A stretch of 64,000 nucleotides of DNA from Giardia intestinalis (lineage: Eukaryota). Below the pieces are notes generated by a model. The model was given only the letters and a program-made list of their open reading frames with translations. It ran no database searches and was not told the DNA's origin. The translations under genes and the position numbers were made by a program. Shown piece after piece: positions 5,747-58,044 of this stretch. How positions within the stretch are numbered: the stretch's first letter is position 1; each line of letters starts with the position of its first letter. The stretch lies in NCBI GenBank assembly GCA_000002435.2, contig CM018793.1, one strand, 5' to 3'.

Positions 5747-8700
5747 ATGAAGCCGCGGAGTAGTAGATCAGATGTACATCCGAAGAAAGATCTGGTTTAC
5801 CCTAACCCCTTTTGGCCTCCAACGGGGGCCTGTTGTCTACAATCGCCCTTTTCTCTGGATTACCAGGACGCCATGCTTCTGTTGTTTAGGGCCTTGGAGA
5901 GAGCTGTTAATCTCCCCATACTCCGCATGGACGATATGGCGGCCTGCTATACAGTGGCTTTTCAACGTCTTTCACTTTTAAGCTTAGACCATGACAAACT
6001 CAATATCTCATTTACGGACCCCGATAGTGATGCAGATCTACGTATGAAGAAGTCGGCTTCTGATGCCATCTCTTCTGAGGGACCGATAAGCTTTTCCAAC
6101 GCCATTCCTCTCAGACGTTCCACATTACAGGTACTCACAAGTAACCCCTTGGATCTTCTTAACTTGGCCACACAGTTTTATGACTTTCTAAAGTTTCAAA
6201 CAAGACTCCACAGTGAAATTTTGGCACTAATCTATTGTATTCATCGCATCCAAACATGGTCAAACTCTAGCTCAGCACAGGAATCTAATGCATCGTTTCG
6301 CAAACGATCGCATGAGTATTTTAGCTCTTATCTTTCTACATCTTTACAAAACATCAACACTATGATACGGGATTGTCCGCTATTGGTTGATGCCTATCTG
6401 TCCAAAATGGTGTGCATTTCTCTATTACGGTGCTTAGAGCCACAGATTGATACGGGACATAAGGATATGCTAAAGGAATTATTGGGTGTGGCTAACTCAG
6501 GTATTGAAAACGGTAGTGTGCTGCTTGCCCTGTACGATCAGGTGGAATACTACTCTACCAATGAATTCACTGGAGTATACAGTGAGTCTTACCTAATGCA
6601 TCTTACCAATACAATGAAGTCCCTTACACACGGGCTTCTGCTTGGCTGGCACACACTGCGAGCATACAGAGTCAATCTCCTAAGGCAATTGGGAAGGTTT
6701 GATGATGCTTGTACCGAGGCCCGAGAACTCATTAAGCTAACCATTACGACCATGCAAGGCGAGAAGCACCTTTCTGCTTCTCTTTGTACTTGTGTGTCAG
6801 ATACTCTCACTCTTGAACCCTTAGATCCTATCATGTTTGTTGCCCAGCAAACTAATTTTGTCCCCGTGCATTCAAAAGGGTACAATGGATTTGTTCAGCT
6901 CCCACCTCCCTTTCAGTTAGAGTTGGATAATTCCTTATCTTCATTCAGTAGTCAAAATGCTATGGGCAATACAACGACAATCAAGTTTCCCTCACTAAGA
7001 GATATCTACATGTCCTCGCCAATTGGCACTAGTCTGCCACCTGAGCCAGAAAGCTCCAACTCTAATGACCCCGTCAACACCTCAATCAACGTACCCATAA
7101 ACGTAGACCAGTCCGCTTCTTTTACTGATAAGATGAGTAGTCGGCAGAAGACAAACGCCCAGGCTGCAAACACTAAGGCTAAAGATTTAAGCCACAAGGG
7201 CAGATCCCTGTCAGATACTAGTAATATGGGATGCCCAATCCATAGCGCAAGCTCTAAGCATCTAGACTATCGCTTGACTTACTTATTGGCAGTTTTGGAA
7301 GCAGGCTATGATGACGAAGCCTTCGAATACCTCATGTCTGGGGTTTTCCGCAGCAGGCTTTTCTCAAGGCTTAAGGCCAATTTGGATTACGGCACCATTT
7401 ATACCACTCCCAAGAAGTCCGATTATATTAGGTTTGAAGTTCAGAACGACGAAAAGTATCACTACCATACTACTGCCACCTCTGTCAATCCTTCGCCCGT
7501 GCACTACCCAACTTATTATAGGCATTACTCAGAGGGTCTGAATCACAAGTGTGTTGACGACTATTTTGCCAATGGCCCGCAACCTGTATGTAAGGACTGC
7601 ACGAAGAGGACATCTCATGGAGCGCGTCCGCATTTCGTTGTTAGGAATGATGGTGCCTACAATCAGTATACTATGCATAGCTTCCTAGCACGACACAACA
7701 AACTCTTGACCAATATACTGTATCAACGCGCCTACAAGCACATCAACCACATGTTTACAAGCAAGCACGGTACCATTCATAATAGGAAGCCACTCAGCAA
7801 ACTCTCACTTGGTCGCCTGAAGCCGTCGACAAACTTCGTTCACAATCTGAGGATGTCATTCGATCCCAAACTTCTTACTATTATCAATTGTTACTTTTCG
7901 AGTCAGATACGTGGACCTCTGTCTCGCATTCTCTTCTACGGGCCATACTACCAGTTTAGATGCACAAGCGATAAGCCCTATACATCCTTTGAAGACATCC
8001 AGGACGTGATTGATATAATATCATCTTCTAGTCACCACGCTGAACAGCTGCAAGCTCAAGCAATATGGTTTAATTACCATGCGCACAACAACCAAGTAGG
8101 CACCACCACACCTGTGTCTTACTCTATCATTGATTCCCCAGCAAGCATATTCCTATGCACATCAGAGACTAAGGCGACCAACTCACTATTGCGCACAACT
8201 CCACTGACCACTACGGTAACAACCTATACACTATTATTCTTACTTCTGAAGAGGAGGGCAACATGGGCTAATAAGCTTGCGCAGTCGATCTTTGCCGAAA
8301 GGATGCTCGGTTGCAATTGTGCGCGGTCCTCTATGCTTTTCAAGAGGTCCATGAATGTGATGGACCTAGCTATGGCATGGCCAAAGAAGTGTCTGCATCT
8401 TAAGATTATGCCTTCCATGTTGCTCACGGATTTGGGAGTACGGCCTGCAATACCGTCTACCAAGCTGCTACAACTGGCTTTCTCAACAAATCCGTACGTC
8501 GTTGAGTATCTGTTAGCAAAGGCGGTCTTGCCAAGCAAGGTGGCGTTATATGGCCTGACCCTTCTATTCGATGCCAGCGCCTGTGAAGACCCAGATTGCC
8601 TTCTGGTTGCCCAGTATCCCAACGAGGACCTTCAGCTTAGTACATACAGACATGCCGTGCGTGCGTGGCAGGATCGCTACTGCAGGTCATCAGAGGAGAA

Positions 8701-11700
8701 GCAAGGCACATATACTATCGACCCAAAAGCTGCCTCGTGCACAGAAGCCAGGGACAAGGACATGAGGAAAACTGCCTCGCGACTGCGCCTATCAGAACGT
8801 CGTAGGGCTCTTTTCCAGCTAGTGCAGGATCAGCGTAAGCTGGAGGCAGCAATCTACGCTTCAGAATTTGGTGGTTTATGGGGATCAAACGCTCTCTATT
8901 TGCAAATATATGCACTTGCAGAGAAGCTAGCGACGGAAGACGGTATAATGGCCGGTATTCCTTTCTCGTTTTATATTCGCTCTTTGCGGATAATCACTTT
9001 GGGGGCTTGTGATGAGTGTGGGAACAGCTTCCTCAATGGAAAGGGAGTGCAGCTATCCTCGCATGGATATCTGCATATAGCCTCATTAGACTTCTTGCTA
9101 CAGGCATATGTGCAGTATTTGCAATTCGAAGCGGCCAGCACTCTGAGATCTTTAGCAATTCATACGTCTATTACAGCAAAGTCATATCCCGCAGACATTA
9201 TAGATACCACGGATGCCTTGGACACTAAGGATATTAAGGACACAAGCACATCGCTACGAGAAGCATTCTTCAAGAGATGGAGGCTAATATGGAGGGCGAC
9301 GCTACTGCAATTCAAGGGATACCCGCCATACCTATCTCTTCGCTCAGCCCAAGCCATGAAGGAGCTATTTTATAACATGATATTCACTCACAGAAACGTA
9401 TCTACTCCCGATAAGCCTGGCATGCTCAGTTACGTTAACCCTCTGTTGTGTCTTCTAAACACAAATTCACAGTTCCTAGACATCATGACACTTGCATCTA
9501 CAGCCGCGAATGACAAGAATGGCTTACTGTCGCTTCTCCAGAGCTATCTGGTGGCATTCATGTCTGGCAATCAGAAGGAGCTATTTTCTGTCTCAGCTAT
9601 AGAATCTCAGCCAACAAATGTCTATTTCGATATGCCTATCTTTGTCGTATTCTTTTCGTTGACAATTATTTCCATTTTAGAGTTCAAGCCCTCTTTCGCA
9701 CCTGGCAGCCTTCTGTCGGAGTTCACCAGACTTACTACTTTCTCGCCTATTACCGACGCAACCACATCTGCAGGACTACTATTTTATTCTGCAAATGACT
9801 TAAGCCACCACTATATTAGTCCAATGAGCAAGACAAAGAAGCATATATCTTTAACACTATTGAATTGCATGGCTCTCGGTATGCTGTCCAGGAAGGAGGA
9901 CGCCTCTAACGCCCAGATAATAGGCAACAACGCCACGTCATCGAGCGCAGCAACATTCATAGCAAATCGTGATGCATACAAAGCGCTGCAAGGCTCGACT
10001 TGTGATACCCTTGACAAGTGGCTGTCTACTAAAGTCTTAGCCACAAGCAAAATATCATCTCTATCGTTTCAATCAGGATCTAATACCCAGCATGATGTGC
10101 GAGGAAAACGCAAACCTGCGCGTTATATGAAATCATTAAGCTACCAGCACAAGCGATCACCACCGCCGTCGCGTGCACTCGAGCCACATCATTCGCAGAA
10201 TATTGACGATATATTGCTGTCTTCGTTCTATATTGATGATGAGAATAGGCTTTATAGGAGCTTTCTTCGTAACCCCGGTCTTTCCTTGCGTCTTTCTAGG
10301 CTTCAGCGAACTCAGTACTTTGGACTGGCAACATTAAATACTATACTGGAGATGGAGGACATCATTGAGCGCATGTTTGTTACAGTTAACTATAGCGTCT
10401 CAGATCTTATTCTCATATACTTCATGGCACACTCTTTCGATCATACAAGTAGAAAGGCTAATCTGTCCTATATTTACGACTCGGACGCGGTTCTAAACTA
10501 CCGATGCCCAATATCTTCTTTTGGAACGGCCAACATGCCACCTATCTACTATCTTGTGGAGACGGGACAAGATGAAGTCTTTATGCTGCTTATGGAACGA
10601 GTGATATCAGCACTTTCTTATAGAAACCACCTTTCTACCTTAGAGGAGAACTCCACCTCTACCGCCAGCGATTGTCCTGTCCTTCCCGAAGAGTTTTGTG
10701 GATATTCCTTTTCACTGGCCGAAGATATGGTCCTGAAAGTAGACCATGAAGATAGTGACGTGGTGTTAGAGGCTGATTCTAATTCACCACTTCTAACGTA
10801 CTTGGCGGCACGACGAAAGGCCAGACTAGGACCATCCTCTGATCTAGATTTGGATGCGTTTGTTACCCCTAGTACAATCTCCTTCGGTGGAACTCACAAG
10901 ATAGCAATCTATGAGGCTCAAGCAAAGATCTTGAATATCCCCTTATCTAGAGCCGAGATTGATGCCCTCTATACCGCCAAAACGTTATCTAAACAAGAAA
11001 TTGAAACCTGCCTGAACCCCCTGTGGGCAAACATAGTTGGATCCACCAAGCTACTGCGCAGTAGTATTGATAGCTTGGTCCACTGCTGCTACAAAGGAGA
11101 GACGCTGCTTCATGCTGCATCTAAGAGGGATCACCTACATATTATTGAGCTAATTCTATTAATTTTTCCAGTAGATTGTTATGATCTATTACGCTCTTTT
11201 TATGCAGCTCTTCTGAATCACTCGTCGGGCGCTCTTCGTCTCTTTCTTCCCAGTCCACTTCATCCATCTCTTGAAGGTGTTAGAGATATAGCAGCAGATA
11301 TAAAAGAGGGCATTTCCACAATCACCACAGAGACTCCGGAGTGCAAGTACTTACTGAAGCACTCCATAGCCGCTGCCTCTGCTCTCTCTGATATGTCTAA
11401 TATTCTACTGAACTCGTTTTCGTACGATGTCAATCCGCTCTTGAAACTTGGCTCAGGCGAGTCTCCTTTCTCGCCTTTAGCCAACCATGAACAGCTAGCC
11501 GATAAGCTTCAAGAGTTCCAGCAGCTCGTCTCATCCAGTCAGTATTACTCCTTTCTTGCATGGGCACACCTTGTTAGGACATTGCGGCCATTCTGCTCTG
11601 GCACTACAGGCGGTGTCTCCTGCTTACACTGTCATCATGCTAAGTCGAGCCCCTGCAAGAAGAGCAATCTCCTTAAATATCTGTCGTTCGCGAAGACTCA

Positions 11701-14251
11701 CTCAGCTACGAGTGAAAAGACTGAGAAAAGGCACCAGCTATCTACCATGCAAAAATTGCTTGCCCAGCAATGCTACTTTTCCGGTCACTCTCTCCATGGA
11801 TGCATAGATTTACTGCTAAGCGCTAACATAGATATACGGATATGTGCCATGCAAAATATGGAACTATATAATATGCTCAGCACATTCAACAGAGCTTTTG
11901 TTATGGAACAACTGCCAATTAAAACGTCCGAGCAGCGGACAGAAATCTCTTACCCAGACCCCATAGTCTTGTTGAAATATCTTTCATATGTTTACCAAGT
12001 ATTTGGTACAAGAGGATTGCCGAGTAGCAATAATAATCTGAATAGTATAGTCTTTGATCGCTTCTGCACTCCTATGTCAACGCCCTTGATTATGGCAGCC
12101 CAGTATGGAAGTCCTGTTTGTCATATACTTTGCGCCATCATAAACTCTCTGACAAAGTCTACCACTGCTGAAAGGGTGCTCAGCAATCCAAGTACACTGA
12201 GCGCATACGTCAATCATAGAGATGCATATGGACTCACCGCCCTTCATCATGCAACTATTCTGTTCATTCGAGCATTTGTTTCCATCATCAAGCATAGCCT
12301 TTCACCTATCATCTCACTAGGTCTTAGCCTTACAGCCTCTTTCCCAGCCATACATAAACCAGAAACGGTAATCTTTGATCATGAATTTGCTTGTAGTATC
12401 TTGGCCCTGTCACGGGCAAATGTTAAGGCCCTAATGCTGGCTGGAGCTGACCCTGGAATACCCGATGCCACAGGAGTGCGCTGCTGTGATAGACTCATTG
12501 CTATGTTGCTAGAGATGAATATGATACTGTTTCCACCAGAGTATGTAGTTGAGCGCTTTCATAAGGATCAGCCGACTGACATACTTATGCATCTAATACT
12601 GTGGTCAGAGAAGCACCACAAGCCTTCGCGTAGTGATGCAACTTTGAACCCTGACTCTTCTTTGACCGTTCGCATACCAATCTTAATCGAGGCTAAACAC
12701 GTTAATTGGAGAGAGGAATTAGTGAAACTACAGCTCAGACAATTGCAAAGATCTGGACACCTTACAAAGGATGTGTTGTCTACTGATCGCACATCTCCAC
12801 CACTAGCCCTTGATCTACGTGTCCAGATTAGCGTTGAGGTGCACCCGAAAATCTCTTCTGTATCCTCTGCCATGCAGGTCATAATACAATCCAATTGTAC
12901 CCGTGTGATCTCCGAACTGTCTATCGTGCTATCAATATTCCTCGGGCTTCCCGAATATCAAGATCGCAACCAGGCCTTTTCTAATGATATCATTACCACA
13001 TCCACTACCACCTTCATTCCTACCCCTGCGGAGATTGTTCCTCTCCCTTTTTGTAGTGTTAGTGCAGAGGGCATTCAGCACTATCTCGAACTCTGGTCCT
13101 CAGTGCCGGTCTTGGAGATAACGAAGCAGCCACCCCTCTCTTCACCTATGCCACCTATGCCAATGCAAGAACTACTTCTTTGGGCATACAGTCTGTACTC
13201 TGTCTATGGTCTCCGGGACTGTAGGTTCATTGACGAGTTTCATTCTAAATGGGCCACGACAGGTAACGCTTTCATTCCGTGGGATACTCAGGTGTACAGT
13301 TCCGACGCATCTGCAGAGGAAACCGTTACTTGTTCATCAGCTACAATACCTGCAGTTGACCAGCTGCCGCCTCTACTGCACTCTCTCTCACTAGAGTCTG
13401 CTATCGGCAGACTAGCACTTGGGGACAGTAGGGTGGTATACACTCGGAAATATAATTTAAAATTTTACAATAATCAATCTAATTGTCAATATTTTTCTGT
13501 ACATAGATTTAGAAATCAGGTGTGGAGGCGGATATTGGGGAACTTAAGAGCTAAGCCTTCAATATGTAATGAAAGCGTACACATCCAACACATAGACTTA
13601 GACAAGACAGGGTCTGCCATAGTCGATACCATAACGATGTCCGTGTCGCACACACTACTTCAGAGCTCACTACTGGACTTTCCGAACCAGATGCTATCCA
13701 CTGCAGACATCTTCACTCTTCTCAAGGAGTCCTTAGTTATATGCTTCCATGAAGAGGAAGCGTGTATAGAGTCTGAAGGCCGTGACTCACTGTGCGCCAC
13801 TGTTACCTACAGAGATGTACTCGGTCTTTCTAGCTCAGCTGACGACTCCGTTCTTCTGGATCTTCGAACGATATTTCGTCGTGCTAGGGTGCTCTCTATT
13901 TTGGCTGACAACATCTGCCCGCGATCGACTCTTCTATTCTGTTCGCCCGATGATCTGTGCTTCCCATCTGCGTGGATGCTGTCTCAGTGTTTCGCGGGGT
14001 CGAAGGTGTTCCTTGAGTCACTTTACTCAAGCAACTGCAACAACGATCTAGCGGAGGGCATAGACGAACTGTACGCTCCAAAGATTCCTCTGTTGGACGC
14101 TATGATTGATAGAACACTCCAGTCTACCAAAATATGTTCCACCCTCTTTGACGGCAGAGTCACAGAGGAAGCGGAGCCCGTAGACAAAAGAACTGTACTG
14201 TTCACACCGAATCGGCTAGGCTTCGCTAGGCTGCAAAATAAACACATTTAG
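5747..14251 (+). CDS. giant hypothetical protein (about 2834 aa), largely alpha-helical, a few ankyrin-like GxTALHxA segments
   Basis: Uninterrupted 8.5 kb ORF; ORF-track start at 5744 is TTG, first ATG at 5747; no catalytic motif recognised. Confidence 0.6.
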   Translation: MKPRSSRSDVHPKKDLVYPNPFWPPTGACCLQSPFSLDYQDAMLLLFRALERAVNLPILRMDDMAACYTVAFQRLSLLSLDHDKLNISFTDPDSDADLRMKKSASDAISSEGPISFSNAIPLRRSTLQVLTSNPLDLLNLATQFYDFLKFQTRLHSEILALIYCIHRIQTWSNSSSAQESNASFRKRSHEYFSSYLSTSLQNINTMIRDCPLLVDAYLSKMVCISLLRCLEPQIDTGHKDMLKELLGVANSGIENGSVLLALYDQVEYYSTNEFTGVYSESYLMHLTNTMKSLTHGLLLGWHTLRAYRVNLLRQLGRFDDACTEARELIKLTITTMQGEKHLSASLCTCVSDTLTLEPLDPIMFVAQQTNFVPVHSKGYNGFVQLPPPFQLELDNSLSSFSSQNAMGNTTTIKFPSLRDIYMSSPIGTSLPPEPESSNSNDPVNTSINVPINVDQSASFTDKMSSRQKTNAQAANTKAKDLSHKGRSLSDTSNMGCPIHSASSKHLDYRLTYLLAVLEAGYDDEAFEYLMSGVFRSRLFSRLKANLDYGTIYTTPKKSDYIRFEVQNDEKYHYHTTATSVNPSPVHYPTYYRHYSEGLNHKCVDDYFANGPQPVCKDCTKRTSHGARPHFVVRNDGAYNQYTMHSFLARHNKLLTNILYQRAYKHINHMFTSKHGTIHNRKPLSKLSLGRLKPSTNFVHNLRMSFDPKLLTIINCYFSSQIRGPLSRILFYGPYYQFRCTSDKPYTSFEDIQDVIDIISSSSHHAEQLQAQAIWFNYHAHNNQVGTTTPVSYSIIDSPASIFLCTSETKATNSLLRTTPLTTTVTTYTLLFLLLKRRATWANKLAQSIFAERMLGCNCARSSMLFKRSMNVMDLAMAWPKKCLHLKIMPSMLLTDLGVRPAIPSTKLLQLAFSTNPYVVEYLLAKAVLPSKVALYGLTLLFDASACEDPDCLLVAQYPNEDLQLSTYRHAVRAWQDRYCRSSEEKQGTYTIDPKAASCTEARDKDMRKTASRLRLSERRRALFQLVQDQRKLEAAIYASEFGGLWGSNALYLQIYALAEKLATEDGIMAGIPFSFYIRSLRIITLGACDECGNSFLNGKGVQLSSHGYLHIASLDFLLQAYVQYLQFEAASTLRSLAIHTSITAKSYPADIIDTTDALDTKDIKDTSTSLREAFFKRWRLIWRATLLQFKGYPPYLSLRSAQAMKELFYNMIFTHRNVSTPDKPGMLSYVNPLLCLLNTNSQFLDIMTLASTAANDKNGLLSLLQSYLVAFMSGNQKELFSVSAIESQPTNVYFDMPIFVVFFSLTIISILEFKPSFAPGSLLSEFTRLTTFSPITDATTSAGLLFYSANDLSHHYISPMSKTKKHISLTLLNCMALGMLSRKEDASNAQIIGNNATSSSAATFIANRDAYKALQGSTCDTLDKWLSTKVLATSKISSLSFQSGSNTQHDVRGKRKPARYMKSLSYQHKRSPPPSRALEPHHSQNIDDILLSSFYIDDENRLYRSFLRNPGLSLRLSRLQRTQYFGLATLNTILEMEDIIERMFVTVNYSVSDLILIYFMAHSFDHTSRKANLSYIYDSDAVLNYRCPISSFGTANMPPIYYLVETGQDEVFMLLMERVISALSYRNHLSTLEENSTSTASDCPVLPEEFCGYSFSLAEDMVLKVDHEDSDVVLEADSNSPLLTYLAARRKARLGPSSDLDLDAFVTPSTISFGGTHKIAIYEAQAKILNIPLSRAEIDALYTAKTLSKQEIETCLNPLWANIVGSTKLLRSSIDSLVHCCYKGETLLHAASKRDHLHIIELILLIFPVDCYDLLRSFYAALLNHSSGALRLFLPSPLHPSLEGVRDIAADIKEGISTITTETPECKYLLKHSIAAASALSDMSNILLNSFSYDVNPLLKLGSGESPFSPLANHEQLADKLQEFQQLVSSSQYYSFLAWAHLVRTLRPFCSGTTGGVSCLHCHHAKSSPCKKSNLLKYLSFAKTHSATSEKTEKRHQLSTMQKLLAQQCYFSGHSLHGCIDLLLSANIDIRICAMQNMELYNMLSTFNRAFVMEQLPIKTSEQRTEISYPDPIVLLKYLSYVYQVFGTRGLPSSNNNLNSIVFDRFCTPMSTPLIMAAQYGSPVCHILCAIINSLTKSTTAERVLSNPSTLSAYVNHRDAYGLTALHHATILFIRAFVSIIKHSLSPIISLGLSLTASFPAIHKPETVIFDHEFACSILALSRANVKALMLAGADPGIPDATGVRCCDRLIAMLLEMNMILFPPEYVVERFHKDQPTDILMHLILWSEKHHKPSRSDATLNPDSSLTVRIPILIEAKHVNWREELVKLQLRQLQRSGHLTKDVLSTDRTSPPLALDLRVQISVEVHPKISSVSSAMQVIIQSNCTRVISELSIVLSIFLGLPEYQDRNQAFSNDIITTSTTTFIPTPAEIVPLPFCSVSAEGIQHYLELWSSVPVLEITKQPPLSSPMPPMPMQELLLWAYSLYSVYGLRDCRFIDEFHSKWATTGNAFIPWDTQVYSSDASAEETVTCSSATIPAVDQLPPLLHSLSLESAIGRLALGDSRVVYTRKYNLKFYNNQSNCQYFSVHRFRNQVWRRILGNLRAKPSICNESVHIQHIDLDKTGSAIVDTITMSVSHTLLQSSLLDFPNQMLSTADIFTLLKESLVICFHEEEACIESEGRDSLCATVTYRDVLGLSSSADDSVLLDLRTIFRRARVLSILADNICPRSTLLFCSPDDLCFPSAWMLSQCFAGSKVFLESLYSSNCNNDLAEGIDELYAPKIPLLDAMIDRTLQSTKICSTLFDGRVTEEAEPVDKRTVLFTPNRLGFARLQNKHI

Positions 14252-14271
14252 CCGGACATAGACACCGAAAC

Positions 14272-15231
14272 TTAGTTTTTGTACACCGAAGACGCATCTT
14301 GGTCCATCTGAGGGAACATGACTGCTTGATATGGCTGGCCGAAGCCAGCGCCAGGGGGCACACCCATTACCGGCTGACCACTGCCAGCAGCCGGGAGCCA
14401 ATACATTAACCACTGGTATGGTACCGATGGATGATTTAAGAATCCAGGGCCTGCAACTGGCGTCTGAAGAGACAGCTGTTGCCATGCAGTAGGCACAACT
14501 GGCCCCTGGCTTGGAGCTGGCGAGGTAGAGGCAGCAGCAGCAGCAGTTGCCGTTGCAGCGGTCGTGGGGGGAGAGAAGGCCGAAAGGCCCACTGGAAACA
14601 CCGGCTGCGAGACCATTTGGGAAGAGGAAAAAGGTGGTTGTTGTGTAAACGAGTTCGTCGCCGGCTGATCAGCTGAGTTGGCAGTACCGTCAGTCGCAAG
14701 GGCAGCAAGAGTCGGCTTCTGATCGGCCGGATGTTGCCTCGTTTTTGACACAATAGAAACCGCGTGACGCTTAGTAGGAAGCGTAATTTTCTTGCGGCTC
14801 AGAATACGCTGTATGTCACGGCTTCTGAGCATGTTGTTGTAAGTCATCATAATCTCCTGTCGAGGATACTTGGACTCAAATAGATTACGAATTGTAAGTT
14901 GAAAACCATCCTCTAAAATTGTTTGAGTCTCAATCCCCTGGATAATAGCGTCCTTAATTATTTTCTTGTCTTCTGCTGACATCTTAATACCGGATATGCG
15001 ACGCAGATGCGTTTCGTTATACCAATGATAGACACTTGCGCGGGTCATGCCCAAATCCTTAGCGATACTTGGCCAGTTAACACGCATTTTGGAAACATAA
15101 CTATGAAGCGTTACCGGATTTTTAATAAGCTGCTCCATCGAGTGCTGGGGATCTAGCGTGGCGATGACTTGTACAGCAAGGGCACGCAATACTGCACGAT
15201 GAACATCGTTATAATCATCCGGTACAAGCAT
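14272..15231 (-). CDS. putative helix-turn-helix DNA-binding protein with Q/P/A-rich C-terminal tail
   Basis: ORF-track start 15240 is TTG; first ATG at 15229-15231 behind TTGAATTGAAAAAAATG; segment WPSIAKDLGMTRASVYHWYNE resembles psq/CENP-B/pogo-type HTH; C-terminal Pro/Gln/Ala low complexity including a (GCA)5 run. Confidence 0.5.
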   Translation of the reverse strand: MLVPDDYNDVHRAVLRALAVQVIATLDPQHSMEQLIKNPVTLHSYVSKMRVNWPSIAKDLGMTRASVYHWYNETHLRRISGIKMSAEDKKIIKDAIIQGIETQTILEDGFQLTIRNLFESKYPRQEIMMTYNNMLRSRDIQRILSRKKITLPTKRHAVSIVSKTRQHPADQKPTLAALATDGTANSADQPATNSFTQQPPFSSSQMVSQPVFPVGLSAFSPPTTAATATAAAAASTSPAPSQGPVVPTAWQQLSLQTPVAGPGFLNHPSVPYQWLMYWLPAAGSGQPVMGVPPGAGFGQPYQAVMFPQMDQDASSVYKN

Positions 15232-15909
15232 TTTTTTCAATTCAAGACCGTTAATATATTTTGTGGTCTTTAACAGTCAATGTGCCCTAGAAGCCGCTAT
15301 CCCGTTAAAGCGCCTCTTTCAGTTTATAACCGAGCAAAAAGCTTCGTTCAGGCCCTCGAGTCATGTACTAATCATGTACTGTCATGTACTATTTGAGTTG
15401 TAATTCGTGCAGTCAAGAAGTCATGACCGGCTCAACCCTCTGCTGTAAATCTCGAAGCATATGTCACCGCGTCGTGTGGTCTTCTTGACCGAGCATCTAA
15501 ATATTTTCGATGACAAACCTTTAGCTAATTTATAAAGGGTTTCTGTTTAGGCAGTATCTTTGGCACGATTCTCCTCTTCGCCCTCTGGGCCCTGTCTATT
15601 TTCCCCTGTCAGAATGGTTTATGTATGGCATATCAAATTTTTGTCAAATTATATAGACCATTCAGCTTAGAATCTTGCTTAAGGAAGTGTGCTTCCGGTC
15701 TAGACGGTGAAGGTTTACTTCGCTAGTATTTACTAGTAATTTCTTTCGGTATAATCTTATGAGATCTCCTACTCTTGAAGAGTACATCTCTTACTTTCGT
15801 TCTTTGCAAAGTGCAAAAGCTTTTGCCTTTCTCTTATGACTGCAGAGGGCTGTAAGGATGGGATGGCCGAAGAGCTTTGAGGAGGTTTTTGGGGGACCTC
15901 GGGCTATGG

Positions 15910-18900
15910 CTATAGCCTCAGAAACAGGTCTGCGCAGCCATAGTCAAGATGCTGTCTTCTTCCGACTGTCCATTCCAGCACTGATACGCTCGACTTTGGA
16001 GGATGCGCCATGTTCTGCGGCTGCAGGCAGGCAGGAGATGAGGCCAATAGTTCATCCATGCTGGGCGCAAAAAGGTCTATAGCCAGTCCACTGTATAGTT
16101 TAGCTGAATCACATGTTAATTTATATGCCTGTCTAACTCTGTGTGCCACATGGAATAGACCTGCAAACAGAAACGAGGAGGCTACGCCAGCTCCAAACCG
16201 ATAATAGAGCGCCTCGAATAGCCCCTGAAAAGCGTCAGAAAGCGTCCTATCACATAAGTCTAAGATGTTGGGGAAGGCCATCGAAATTAGATGGTCCAGC
16301 AGAGGAGACCCTTGCTGAATAGGGACACACGATAGCATCATGCTCTCTGCCACCCGCATACCCATCAAGCGCATAGACCCGTCTCTCTCTGCAAGCGCAT
16401 GCGATGCAACTCCAACCGTACCCTCCAAGAGTGCCATGTATGTGGTGCACCTTGTTTCACAGCTCTCTCTACTGCTCTCAGGCAACATCTGTGTACTTGT
16501 TAGTGATACCATGTTAAATGCGTAGGTTATTGTGCGAAGTATTGACAATTTAATGGCCCGATCCGGTAGTGCGCCATATTGAACGAGCAGGAACGGGAGA
16601 GCAGCACCAACTCCAGCAGAGAGCAAGACTGCAGCAGCTGCATGACACAAGACTAGTCTTGTTGATCTAGAAACAGTACCTTCGGTGATAAAGAGTGCCC
16701 AAAAGAGATCGTGAAGTGGACACACCTTACTTGCCTGTACTACTGCTTCTACTGCTAATTGCTCCAAGACACGAACACTGACGCTCTCTAGTGCATCGGG
16801 AATCAGACGCAAGCATTGAAGGATGTCTGGTCCCATGTTCTCTACCAGACTAGAGTGCAGCTCAAATTTCGAGAGATGCTTGTGTGCCTGAGAACTGACT
16901 GTTTCGAACACCTTATATGTCGCACACAAGTAGCTACATGCATCTTTCTTATCTGCTTTCATCCGCTCAGAAATCATGGTCTCGTGGATCTGGGCACATA
17001 TAACAGGTAGAAACGACACCAGTGGCCGTATCTGAGTGTGCGAAAAGGAGATGCCAGAGTTCATGATATCTACTAGGAGCTCACACACGATACTGAACCG
17101 CAATGCATCTGTGTCTGGCCTGAGGAGTTGAAATTGAGAAGCTATGAGGACAAATGCCCTTTCAAATAGCTCAGCAACCCCACTAATAGTAACATCTTCT
17201 AGGCTCTTTGATTCCACCAATAAGCGCAAGTAGATGGACAAGGGACCCAGGTACTGCGCAAAATCATTGCTGCACAGGTACTGCCTGAATTGCGGTAAGA
17301 CGTGCTCAACTATGAGCACGCGCAATACACCAGGCGTAAGACTAGCTACACTGATGAGACCCTGATGAATATCATGTAACAGTGAAAGGAATCCGTGATC
17401 AGTCCGGTGAATGGCCAGGATCAGTCTCTCCAGTGATTGTAGGAGCTGGAGAAGGACTGGTTTGGATAATGATTGATGCTTAGTTGAAGAGAAGCGTCGG
17501 AGGGCAAGCATTATTATGGAAAGAAGCGTTTTATCTGATGCTAGGTTGTGCATTTGTCCCTGTCTGCGTCTTAGAAGCAGGAGAAAAGCATTGAAGATAA
17601 TCTCAGGGAACAGAAGCGCAAGGTCTTGGAACACAGATGTAAAATGAAAATAAACATCACCAGGATAGTCTGACTTAGGAAGTAGGCATAGCCCTAAGAT
17701 ATTAGCTCCTTTTCGTTCAAGAAATCCATACACTTTCTCTCTAAAAGACTCGGCAACTGGAGCTATTCTCAAAAAGGCATTGAGAAGGAAGCAAACAGAA
17801 CGGATTCCGTGGGCAGAAAAGACTTGATTAACACTGCTAAATTTGTTACCAAGAGTGTCAATAGCGGACGAGAAAAACGCACAAAGGCGGTAATCCAAAC
17901 CACATATAATGGTGTGTGCATGCACAGACCAGCATATGGCCTCAATGTAAACCAATCCGTGTCTTATTAATGAGTTTGGGTGGGAAGCCAGCGTCACGAA
18001 GTGCTCATGCATTACAGAGATAGCATCTGGCGTTTCCCCTAAGCACAGCAGAATTTTCAGTATCTCTTGTGCCTGAGGGAGAGTTTTATCTAACTTTTGA
18101 CAGAGACAGCTGCACAAAGTCAGGTAGTCAGTCCAGGCAATGGTTGTGACGCAGTTATGACTCTTCAGCATCCAAGTGGTGAAGAAGTGCAGGCCATCGA
18201 TAACAGTTTCGCATGAGAATGAGACAGACTTTGAGAATCCATCATCATCCTTTCTATTGTTCTTAATGAATGTGGTAGTTAGTTCTTGAACAAGCCAATC
18301 AATGAAAAATGGGTTATATGCCTGCTGCATGCGTAGAACAAAGCGGAAGAAGAACGAAGCGTAGAGGTCAATAGCCATCGATGAGTCCGGTCCGGTCTCT
18401 GCCTTAATGCCCTCAAGTTGCTCTTTAATGAAGGATAGAACAAGCGAGATAAACGTGGTCATTGGGGTTGTTGTTTCAAGGACAGTGAAAAGAGTCGCAG
18501 ACAACTTTCCAAAGGTAGCGATGCCAGCCTTACGGTCGAGCCGAGAGAATGCGGTCTTTAAGATGGAAAAGCGAGAAGACTGCCTTACGATATGGTGAAT
18601 GTATTCACGATACGGCAGTTTTTTGCTTATGATGGCAGATAAAAGATCAAGTTGACTATCTATCTTATCGCCAAGTGGGTGCCGGCAAAGTCTTGCTATC
18701 AGCTTCTTAAGAATTTGCATGTGGATATTTGTGCTGCACTCGGGAATATAATCTGCTAGGATGCTGCAGATATCTTTAGAGCTATTGCGGCGAATAAATT
18801 CATCATAAAGGGTGTTTGGGCCCAAGGAGCCATTTTTGGCTTGTAAAGCTGCATCTGTAACAAAAAACCTAACAAGTTTTCCATGGGTGCTACACTTAAG

Positions 18901-18933
18901 TGCTGGTTCGATTGTCGCTGGTCCCGGCAGCAT
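15910..18933 (-). CDS. large hypothetical alpha-helical protein (1007 aa), possibly HEAT/ARM-like
   Basis: 3 kb ORF; ATG at 18931-18933 (minus) behind TTTTTAAAATG; no motif recognised. Confidence 0.6.
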   Translation of the reverse strand: MLPGPATIEPALKCSTHGKLVRFFVTDAALQAKNGSLGPNTLYDEFIRRNSSKDICSILADYIPECSTNIHMQILKKLIARLCRHPLGDKIDSQLDLLSAIISKKLPYREYIHHIVRQSSRFSILKTAFSRLDRKAGIATFGKLSATLFTVLETTTPMTTFISLVLSFIKEQLEGIKAETGPDSSMAIDLYASFFFRFVLRMQQAYNPFFIDWLVQELTTTFIKNNRKDDDGFSKSVSFSCETVIDGLHFFTTWMLKSHNCVTTIAWTDYLTLCSCLCQKLDKTLPQAQEILKILLCLGETPDAISVMHEHFVTLASHPNSLIRHGLVYIEAICWSVHAHTIICGLDYRLCAFFSSAIDTLGNKFSSVNQVFSAHGIRSVCFLLNAFLRIAPVAESFREKVYGFLERKGANILGLCLLPKSDYPGDVYFHFTSVFQDLALLFPEIIFNAFLLLLRRRQGQMHNLASDKTLLSIIMLALRRFSSTKHQSLSKPVLLQLLQSLERLILAIHRTDHGFLSLLHDIHQGLISVASLTPGVLRVLIVEHVLPQFRQYLCSNDFAQYLGPLSIYLRLLVESKSLEDVTISGVAELFERAFVLIASQFQLLRPDTDALRFSIVCELLVDIMNSGISFSHTQIRPLVSFLPVICAQIHETMISERMKADKKDACSYLCATYKVFETVSSQAHKHLSKFELHSSLVENMGPDILQCLRLIPDALESVSVRVLEQLAVEAVVQASKVCPLHDLFWALFITEGTVSRSTRLVLCHAAAAVLLSAGVGAALPFLLVQYGALPDRAIKLSILRTITYAFNMVSLTSTQMLPESSRESCETRCTTYMALLEGTVGVASHALAERDGSMRLMGMRVAESMMLSCVPIQQGSPLLDHLISMAFPNILDLCDRTLSDAFQGLFEALYYRFGAGVASSFLFAGLFHVAHRVRQAYKLTCDSAKLYSGLAIDLFAPSMDELLASSPACLQPQNMAHPPKSSVSVLEWTVGRRQHLDYGCADLFLRL

Positions 18934-57411: not shown

Positions 57412-58044
57412 GACCTATCCTGTCTTATTCACTGTCTACACCTCAAGATAGCCACTTATCATTCTAGCAGCTAGAGTTCTCAACTCTCCAGTGTTATGTC
57501 CTTGTTGGATCGCCCATAACTATCTGGTGCGTTGTACCGTAGTTTTCGATGCACGTATGCAATGCAGTATCCGATTGTATCTCTATTCGGCAAACGTGAG
57601 ATGTACTTGGATTTACCCTTGAGGCAGAGTATTCATCTTATTAGACGCAACAGTGCTGCCGACCAAGCCACTGCTAGGCAGAGCACACGGCCTGTATCTG
57701 CTCATCTCGTGCTCTAGCCAGCCACCCTGCGTGAGCATCTGGAGACATGCCTGGACATATGTGTGGTATTCTGCGGTGTGTACGGTCCCGTGTCCACGCA
57801 GTAGGCCAGCCAGAGAGCGTGTGCAGGCACGCCATGTGGCACCACGTCCTTTGTGGAGCGCTGGAGGAATACACAGGTGAGGGTCTACCATCAAGATGCG
57901 GACACGTTGCTTCCTGACATGGAAGGTCAATGAGGCTATCCAGATGGCCCAGCTATGGTAGAAGGCTAGCAGATGTGATCGTATTGGCCATCAGCACTGT
58001 CACTAACACCAACATGCATGACTAATGGACCTAGCAGGGCCGCA

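Follow-up and report, generated by a model that had tools for sequence, protein, structure and literature searches.

Giardia is generally held to have minimal promoters, with few defined cis-elements or transcription factors. A typical core promoter has an AT-rich initiator where the start codon lies and a further element upstream, between about -20 and -50; the consensus for GlMyb2 is C(T/A)ACAG. GlMyb2 target promoters, including that of the autoregulated glmyb2 gene, have between two and seven sites in the 150-200 bp upstream (PMC9547401). Genes for Giardia small nuclear RNAs (snRNAs) and small nucleolar RNAs (snoRNAs) carry a 12-nt 3' processing motif, [T/A/C]C[C/A]TT[T/C][A/T/C][C/T/A]T[C/T/A]AA (PMC3510501, Hudson et al. 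2012), and true snRNAs are nearly identical among WB, P15 and GS (PMC3510501). Giardia mRNAs use the poly(A) signal AGURAA and have a median 3' untranslated region (UTR) of 59 nt (PMC9014877). Here we compare these systems with a spacer of Giardia duodenalis assemblage A, isolate WB, which lies at 15232-15909 of a 64-kb window (the whole stretch of DNA that was analyzed) between two genes identified by exact protein match, GL50803_5522 upstream and GL50803_13948 downstream. The spacer contains a triple direct repeat, for which a first-pass annotation of the window had offered two explanations, an snRNA/snoRNA gene or a cis-regulatory repeat for the downstream gene. We favor, with moderate confidence, the view that the interval is an ordinary spacer between tandem minus-strand genes, composed of a 3' UTR and a promoter with a conserved triple repeat and holding no small-RNA gene.

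Three phased repeat copies lie upstream of GL50803_13948

Inspection of the spacer reveals three exact copies of TCATGTACT, at 15361-15369, 15372-15380 and 15382-15390. The copies begin 10 and 11 bp apart, which is one helical turn, and on the gene strand they follow the motif RTAYRTGR (GTACATGA in WB). No other 9-mer in the window has three non-overlapping copies within 40 nt, and when the window was simulated 300 times with a first-order Markov model, a 9-mer triple of this kind appeared in a single run. The three direct copies that the first-pass annotation had pointed out are thus exact, span 15361-15390 and stand statistically above chance; among all the features it listed, the triple repeat alone does so. 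The string TCATGAC, which had been proposed as a fourth partial copy, is present at 15421-15427 but is a short chance-level match that is not kept in assemblage E.

To place the repeat in an evolutionary context, GL50803_13948 orthologues and their surrounding DNA were taken from five G. duodenalis lineages, for which alignment of the distant lineages is uncertain outside conserved blocks. The lineages, with the identity of the GL50803_13948 protein to WB and the length of the spacer, are as follows.

Assemblage A (WB), the window, also L001: protein identity 100%, spacer 678 bp
Assemblage E (P15), L006: protein identity 89%, spacer 680 bp
Assemblage B (cluster includes GL50581_564), L009: protein identity 78%, spacer 572 bp
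Run ERR3333380, L010: protein identity 67%, spacer 686 bp
Runs SRR17450160 / ERR3333381, L011: protein identity 67%, spacer 634 bp

L010 and L011 probably represent assemblages C and D, which are found in dogs. The order of the genes does not differ among the five lineages, and the spacer is long throughout (572-686 bp). The repeat was located in each lineage relative to the GL50803_13948 ATG.

15361..15390 in WB, minus strand: triple direct repeat, AGTACATGA three times on the gene strand, equal to TCATGTACT three times on the plus strand; candidate transcription-factor-site cluster
-158 / -148 / -137 from the ATG in A and E, gene strand: three copies, each with a CATG core
-161 / -151 / -140 from the ATG in L010, gene strand: GTACATGA, ATATGTGA and ATACATGA
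-155 / -145 / -134 from the ATG in L011, gene strand: GTACGTGA, GTACGTGA and GTATATGG
Assemblage B, gene strand: two ACGTG cores, 13 nt apart, with the first copy gone

The orientation of the copies matches that of the gene throughout, the 10/11-bp spacing is kept in four lineages, and in these four the distance to the ATG holds to within 3-4 nt. Several copies lie less than ~200 bp upstream of the start codon and are kept in orthologous promoters.

As a neutral yardstick for the spacer, we used identity at the four-fold degenerate sites of the GL50803_13948 coding sequence.

A-E: four-fold-site identity 0.73, spacer identity 0.77
A-B: four-fold-site identity 0.54, spacer identity 0.53
A-L010: four-fold-site identity 0.43, spacer identity 0.50
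A-L011: four-fold-site identity 0.42, spacer identity 0.48

Spacer identity follows four-fold-site identity closely, which indicates that the bulk of the spacer drifts close to neutrally. Three conserved islands emerge from this background, one taking up the ~45 nt that lead to the ATG, one at the triple repeat and one around 15599-15641. In the repeat window, identity between A and both distant lineages (L010 and L011) is 0.80, and the spacer segments beside it drop to 0.17-0.45. A binding-site cluster best fits the combination of fixed ATG distance, orientation, phasing and conservation over a saturated neutral background; copies set one helical turn apart in a single orientation make one factor on one DNA face the likeliest arrangement. 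On these sequence comparisons the triple repeat is probably a helically phased cluster of transcription-factor sites that would bind a regulator and affect the downstream gene. The proposal of a cis-regulatory repeat for that gene gains from the conservation of sequence, spacing, orientation and ATG distance across lineages, with the regulatory role itself still putative.

Copies within one lineage tend to share one core variant, CATG in A and E and CGTG in L011 and B. Such within-lineage sharing suggests either that the copies have been homogenized or that they co-evolve with a factor that binds them.

The island next to the start codon holds two further elements.

15250..15273, minus strand: conserved element TTAAAGACCACAAAATATATTAAC of the proximal promoter, spanning roughly -42 to -19 relative to the ATG, with hardly any variation among the five lineages
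15232..15242, minus strand: AT-rich initiator-like AATTGAAAAAAA, adjoining the ATG, conserved in all five lineages; its initiator role is assigned from general knowledge of Giardia promoters

Immediately 5' of the GL50803_13948 ATG, AATTGAAAAAAATG is likewise nearly invariant in all five lineages.

We also considered whether the spacer is read as protein. Translated comparisons of spacer against spacer (tblastx) gave matches in every frame over the same DNA blocks, and this lack of frame preference speaks against a conserved small open reading frame (ORF) in the spacer. A 41-aa minus-strand ORF at 15662-15787 was rejected, its ATG being gone in P15. An intron was considered as well, from inspection by eye for GTATGT and CTRAC..AG signals, and set aside.

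A central conserved block and a lineage-specific hairpin

The third island lies in the middle of the spacer and is accompanied by a hairpin in WB.

15599..15618, minus strand: central block ACCATTCTGACAGGGGAAAA, which holds the palindrome CTGWCAG, ~380 nt upstream of the ATG
15612..15663, plus strand: extended hairpin found in assemblage A only, with AAATTTTTGT (the 'Sm-like' string) in its loop; folding z-scores -3.4 and -4.0, plus strand only

With a mean column conservation of 0.86, ACCATTCTGACAGGGGAAAA is the most conserved 20-mer of the mid-spacer. In the region 15599-15663, the palindrome CTGWCAG falls within ACCATTCTGACAGRG; it is found at -353 to -394 in four of the five lineages and lies ~85-105 nt past the poly(A) sites mapped for GL50803_5522. 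A conserved AATGGT lies ~45 nt upstream of the CTGWCAG block, giving a short AATGGT/ACCATT inverted repeat. Only in WB is the pairing of this block with AATGGT extended, into a 19-bp plus-strand hairpin. Its folding free energy of -20.4 kcal/mol in A weakens to -15.5 in B, -12.4 in E and -6.6 in L010, and L011 lacks the segment through a deletion. The hairpin at 15612-15663 is treated here as lineage-specific.

Searches for a small-RNA gene

The snRNA/snoRNA gene proposed for the spacer was examined by similarity, by processing signal, by structure and by conservation, and it failed at each of these. The first-pass annotation had itself suggested a covariance-model search and a comparison with published Giardia snRNAs. 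In the former, no Rfam family reached its gathering score anywhere in the 64-kb window, a result that is weak alone given how divergent Giardia snRNAs are. In the latter, validated WB U1, U2, U4, U6 and RNase MRP RNAs (PMC3510501 supplement) compared with the window by blastn-short returned chance words of 9-13 nt only. A permissive Rfam scan (E<=10) of 14000-17500 yielded nothing credible, with no snRNA model matching the spacer, and a transfer RNA (tRNA) scan found none. The 12-nt 3' processing motif, sought on both strands, occurs in the window at 18424, 28308, 29488 and 63098 and nowhere within 15232-15909. None of the spacer's conserved blocks is present in the published non-coding RNA (ncRNA) catalogue (PMC3510501). 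Sliding windows of RNAalifold over both strands of the five lineages, an analysis of limited power, gave a best consensus of -2.1 kcal/mol, and the structure conservation index never rose above 0.28.

A C/D box snoRNA, in which a terminal stem joins a C box (RUGAUGA) to a D box (CUGA), was considered and set aside. The sole spacer match in the permissive scan was SNORD59 at 15771-15812 (plus strand), which scores 18.9 bits where 45 are required (E=2.9) and has a degenerate C box, UGAAGA. The conserved CUGA in CATTCTGACAG lies outside the AATGGT/ACCATT stem and not inside it.

Two short strings had been cited in favor of an RNA gene. The segment described as reminiscent of U2 is indeed found as GCAGTATCTTTGG at 15551-15563, but it is short, lacks statistical support and reads GCAGCATCGTTG in P15. 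The Sm-like element, placed by the first-pass annotation at 15636-15646, is present as AAATTTTTGT one to two bases off, at 15635-15644; it has changed to AAAATTTCAT in P15 and is unrecognizable in B and L010. Comparison across assemblages, another check it had named, thus separates the listed features: the repeat is kept in E and retains two cores in B, whereas the Sm-like and U2-like strings are both changed in E. An snRNA or snoRNA gene in the spacer is not supported.

The spacer begins with a mapped 3' UTR

Published data account for the end of the spacer next to GL50803_5522. In a study of Giardia mRNAs by long-read and 3'-end sequencing, this gene has two validated cleavage sites, listed with a short_utr of 189 and a long_utr of 206 (PMC9014877 Supplemental Table S1, sheet 'Doubles'). 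Nanopore reads are given there for GL50803_5522 and GL50803_13948 alike (PMC9014877 Table S2), and what the published tables report is confined to the 3' ends of mRNAs and the lengths of poly(A) tails. Counting from the stop codon and scanning for the signal pattern place the corresponding features as follows.

15704..15909, minus strand: GL50803_5522 3' UTR, with two mapped cleavage sites giving UTRs of 189 and 206 nt
15728..15734, minus strand: proximal poly(A) signal AGTAAAT, starting +176 from the stop, 13 nt ahead of the 189-nt UTR end
15713..15719, minus strand: distal poly(A) signal AGTAAAC, starting +191 from the stop, 15 nt ahead of the 206-nt UTR end

These are the only two AGTRAAY signals in the WB spacer, and a poly(A) signal occurs at the aligned position in all five lineages (AGTAAAY, except for AATAAAC in L011). 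The published 189- and 206-nt ends and the two matching signals together identify 15704-15909 as a mapped 3' UTR. About 30% of the spacer is thus the already published, rather long 3' UTR of GL50803_5522.

Flanking genes and the size of the gap

The two genes on either side of the spacer are both on the minus strand.

15910..18933, minus strand: upstream gene GL50803_5522 (KAE8305559.1), hypothetical protein of 1007 aa, stop TAG at 15912-15910; from ORF translation and an exact-sequence match
14272..15231, minus strand: downstream gene GL50803_13948 (KAE8305558.1), 319 aa, ATG at 15231-15229; from an exact match

From the stop codon of GL50803_5522 to the ATG of GL50803_13948 the gap measures 678 bp (15232-15909), and the consecutive accessions KAE8305558.1 and KAE8305559.1 suggest that no protein-coding gene is annotated between them. 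When ORFs of 120 aa or more are considered, no gap in the window is longer; gaps of 606 bp and 431 bp (the last at the window edge) come next, and most inter-ORF gaps are below 300 bp. The gene-free interval first reported as 15241-15909 (670 bp) is therefore real and is the longest in the window, but its true start is 15232, and 15241 corresponds to an upstream TTG. Its description as AT-rich also holds in direction, with a GC content of 41.9% against 48.1% for the window, but the bias is merely mild. Published intergenic distances in WB have a mean of 470 bp and a median of 81 bp (PMC7641422); the 678-bp gap is far above the genome median, yet not exceptional.

Two further observations concern the surroundings. 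The second-longest ORF-free gap (606 bp) lies at 57412-58017, in the region that had been called the variant-specific surface protein (VSP) flanks. At the other end of GL50803_13948 (14272-15231, minus strand), a plus-strand ORF of 2834 aa (5747-14251) converges on it. The two stop codons are 20 bp apart (14251-14272), so that the 3' UTRs of these genes must overlap on opposite strands.

The GL50803_13948 protein and its paralogues

Across the five lineages, residues 1 to ~160 of GL50803_13948 show almost 100% identity, and the C-terminal half is of low complexity and variable. In the AlphaFold model, residues 1-154 are confidently predicted (predicted local distance difference test, pLDDT, 76-92) and form nine helices. 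Pfam returned HTH_23 and Myb matches at sub-threshold scores only, and a Foldseek search against the PDB gave nothing significant. The first-pass annotation had called this a gene for a helix-turn-helix (HTH) protein, and residues 1 to ~160 may form a Myb/HTH-like domain that binds DNA. A role as an HTH/Myb-like DNA-binding protein is plausible though unproven.

An exhaustive HMMER search with GL50803_13948 recovered 62 relatives at E<=0.001, and those with source names are all Giardia paralogues (GL50803_5908, GL50803_38275, GL50581_3964 and GL50581_1998). Word-based searches for a deeper orthologue, for example in G. muris, found none. The best match outside G. duodenalis in the exhaustive search, P0035, turned out to be an orthologue of the paralogue GL50803_5908. 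The P0006 contig was left aside, its upstream sequence being too short.

The spacer upstream of GL50803_5908 measures 455 bp (L014 1546-2000), and that of its orthologue in the ERR3333382 lineage 433 bp (L015 1568-2000). Both regions have conserved blocks of their own and lack the RTAYRTGR repeat. The blocks that they share include GGCGTTTCTTAAT and GACACGAC..TTTTTAATAA..ATAAATAAAATG. In L010 and L011, a related string, GGCGTTTA, precedes the GL50803_13948 orthologue.

Discussion

Under the reading that we favor, the spacer falls into three parts. The first 189-206 nt past the GL50803_5522 stop codon are a 3' UTR ending at two AGUAAA-type signals. The last ~180 nt would form the promoter of GL50803_13948, made up of the AT-rich initiator, the element at -42 to -19 and the three GTACATGA copies at -158, -148 and -137. 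The ~290 nt between them are subject to near-neutral drift apart from the CTGWCAG block. One sequence-specific DNA-binding protein, or its oligomer, would most likely bind the three copies on one face of the helix, and the bound protein would control transcription of GL50803_13948.

Several points weigh against this arrangement. Functionally defined Giardia promoters are usually shorter than 70 bp, so that copies at -137 to -158 lie further out than is typical. Assemblage B has lost one repeat copy, and the spacing there is altered to 13 nt. In WB, TCATGTACT has two further exact copies in the window, both of which fall inside ORFs, and no regulon is visible. The repeat matches no described Giardia element: the WB spacer lacks CWACAG on both strands, which also speaks against membership of the GlMyb2 regulon, and it has no conserved W-box. 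The repeat motif was not found in a Giardia context in the literature searched, nor were the gene identifiers of the locus in the paper texts searched for them, and GL50803_13948 is not named in the text or the examined supplements of the GlMyb2 target paper (PMC9547401). Finally, the comparison covers five lineages, all of them G. duodenalis.

Alternative explanations differ in what they make of the same features. It is very improbable that the spacer harbors an unannotated ncRNA gene, whether an snRNA, an snoRNA or another small RNA. Such a gene would suit a long gap in a compact genome, and ncRNA genes in Giardia are usually intergenic (PMC3510501); unannotated transcripts are known elsewhere in the genome from long reads (PMC9014877), and the plus-strand hairpin at 15612-15663 is stable, with z-scores of -3.4 and -4.0. 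That hairpin, however, is weaker in E, B and L010 and missing from L011 by deletion, and neither strand has a consensus fold better than -2.1 kcal/mol or a structure conservation index above 0.28. No Rfam family at threshold, no tRNA and no similarity to validated U1, U2, U4, U6 or MRP RNAs were found in the searches described above, the 3' processing motif is absent from the spacer, and the U2-like and Sm-like strings differ in assemblage E. The spacer as a whole is 53% identical between A and B, while validated snRNAs are nearly identical among WB, P15 and GS. The repeat itself might instead be a functionless product of slippage or local duplication, conserved through shared ancestry alone. 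Tandem copies with a 10-11-bp period are a typical outcome of slippage, the sharing of one core variant within a lineage (CATG in A and E, CGTG in L011 and B) could be homogenization, and one copy is gone in assemblage B. We nevertheless hold this to be improbable: A and the distant lineages agree at 0.42-0.43 of four-fold sites and at 0.80 of the repeat window in both cases, adjoining spacer segments stand at 0.17-0.45, and position (to 3-4 nt), orientation and the 10/11 spacing are kept in four lineages.

The repeat could also act as RNA. It would then belong either to a GL50803_13948 mRNA with a long 5' leader or to a divergent or antisense RNA made from a bidirectional promoter. Each WB copy contains ATGA, in which ATG overlaps TGA, and bidirectional Giardia promoters and sterile antisense RNA are reported (PMC1885649). 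The ATG of the copies is not conserved, being GTG in L011, in B and in one L010 copy, and this argues against upstream ORFs. The conserved AT-rich initiator adjoining the annotated ATG points to a short leader, and no conserved RNA structure extends across the repeat, leaving an RNA-level role with little probability. Much the same small likelihood attaches to another role of the conserved islands in DNA, whether in insulating the tandem genes from each other, in termination between them, in nucleosome positioning or in replication. The spacer keeps a length of 572-686 bp in all five lineages despite sequence drift, and past the mapped poly(A) sites, ~85-105 nt further downstream, come the conserved CTGWCAG palindrome and the AATGGT/ACCATT inverted repeat; both points favor such a role. 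However, the spacer yielded no feature peculiar to one of these roles, and the distance of the repeat is fixed to the ATG and not to the 3' end of the upstream gene, which a promoter element fits better.

Taken as a promoter repeat within an ordinary spacer, the triple copies constitute a concrete candidate regulatory element, one that has persisted across lineages with saturated silent sites and that sits upstream of a gene with a putative DNA-binding domain under extreme constraint. A more specific proposal, which we regard as unlikely though worth stating, is that the RTAYRTGR triple is the site of a novel Giardia factor, possibly GL50803_13948 itself or a paralogue; this family is restricted to diplomonads and has an all-helical N-terminal domain of ~150 residues. 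If GL50803_13948 or a paralogue does bind the repeat, the locus would represent an autoregulatory or cross-regulatory switch and an unusually distal promoter module for Giardia. The wider significance is limited, given a single promoter and no visible regulon. The analysis also removes a false lead, in that the interval very probably hides no spliceosomal RNA and about a third of what had seemed empty is mapped 3' UTR.

Comparison with known systems sets the parts of the spacer apart from one another. In agreement with other Giardia 3' UTRs that use AGURAA, GL50803_5522 shows alternative polyadenylation with cleavage 13-15 nt after AGUAAA; in contrast, its UTR is ~3x the reported 59-nt median (PMC9014877). 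The spacer resembles Giardia snRNA and snoRNA loci in being intergenic with AT-rich sequence close by, but differs from them in having no 3' motif, similarity or conserved structure and in its 53% A-B identity (PMC3510501). The repeat core reads TACGTG or CACGTG in assemblage B and L011 and TACATG in A and E. In other eukaryotes, ACGT-core and E-box-like elements (TACGTG / CACGTG) are bound by bZIP or bHLH factors. The cores of B and L011 are like such elements and the TACATG of A and E is not; no membership is claimed. The GlMyb2 encystation promoters (cwp1-3 and glmyb2) offer a parallel in layout, as there too a short motif recurs in the ~150-200 bp that precede the ATG; the GL50803_13948 promoter differs from them in its motif, RTAYRTGR, and in copies that are strictly tandem and phased at 10/11 bp.
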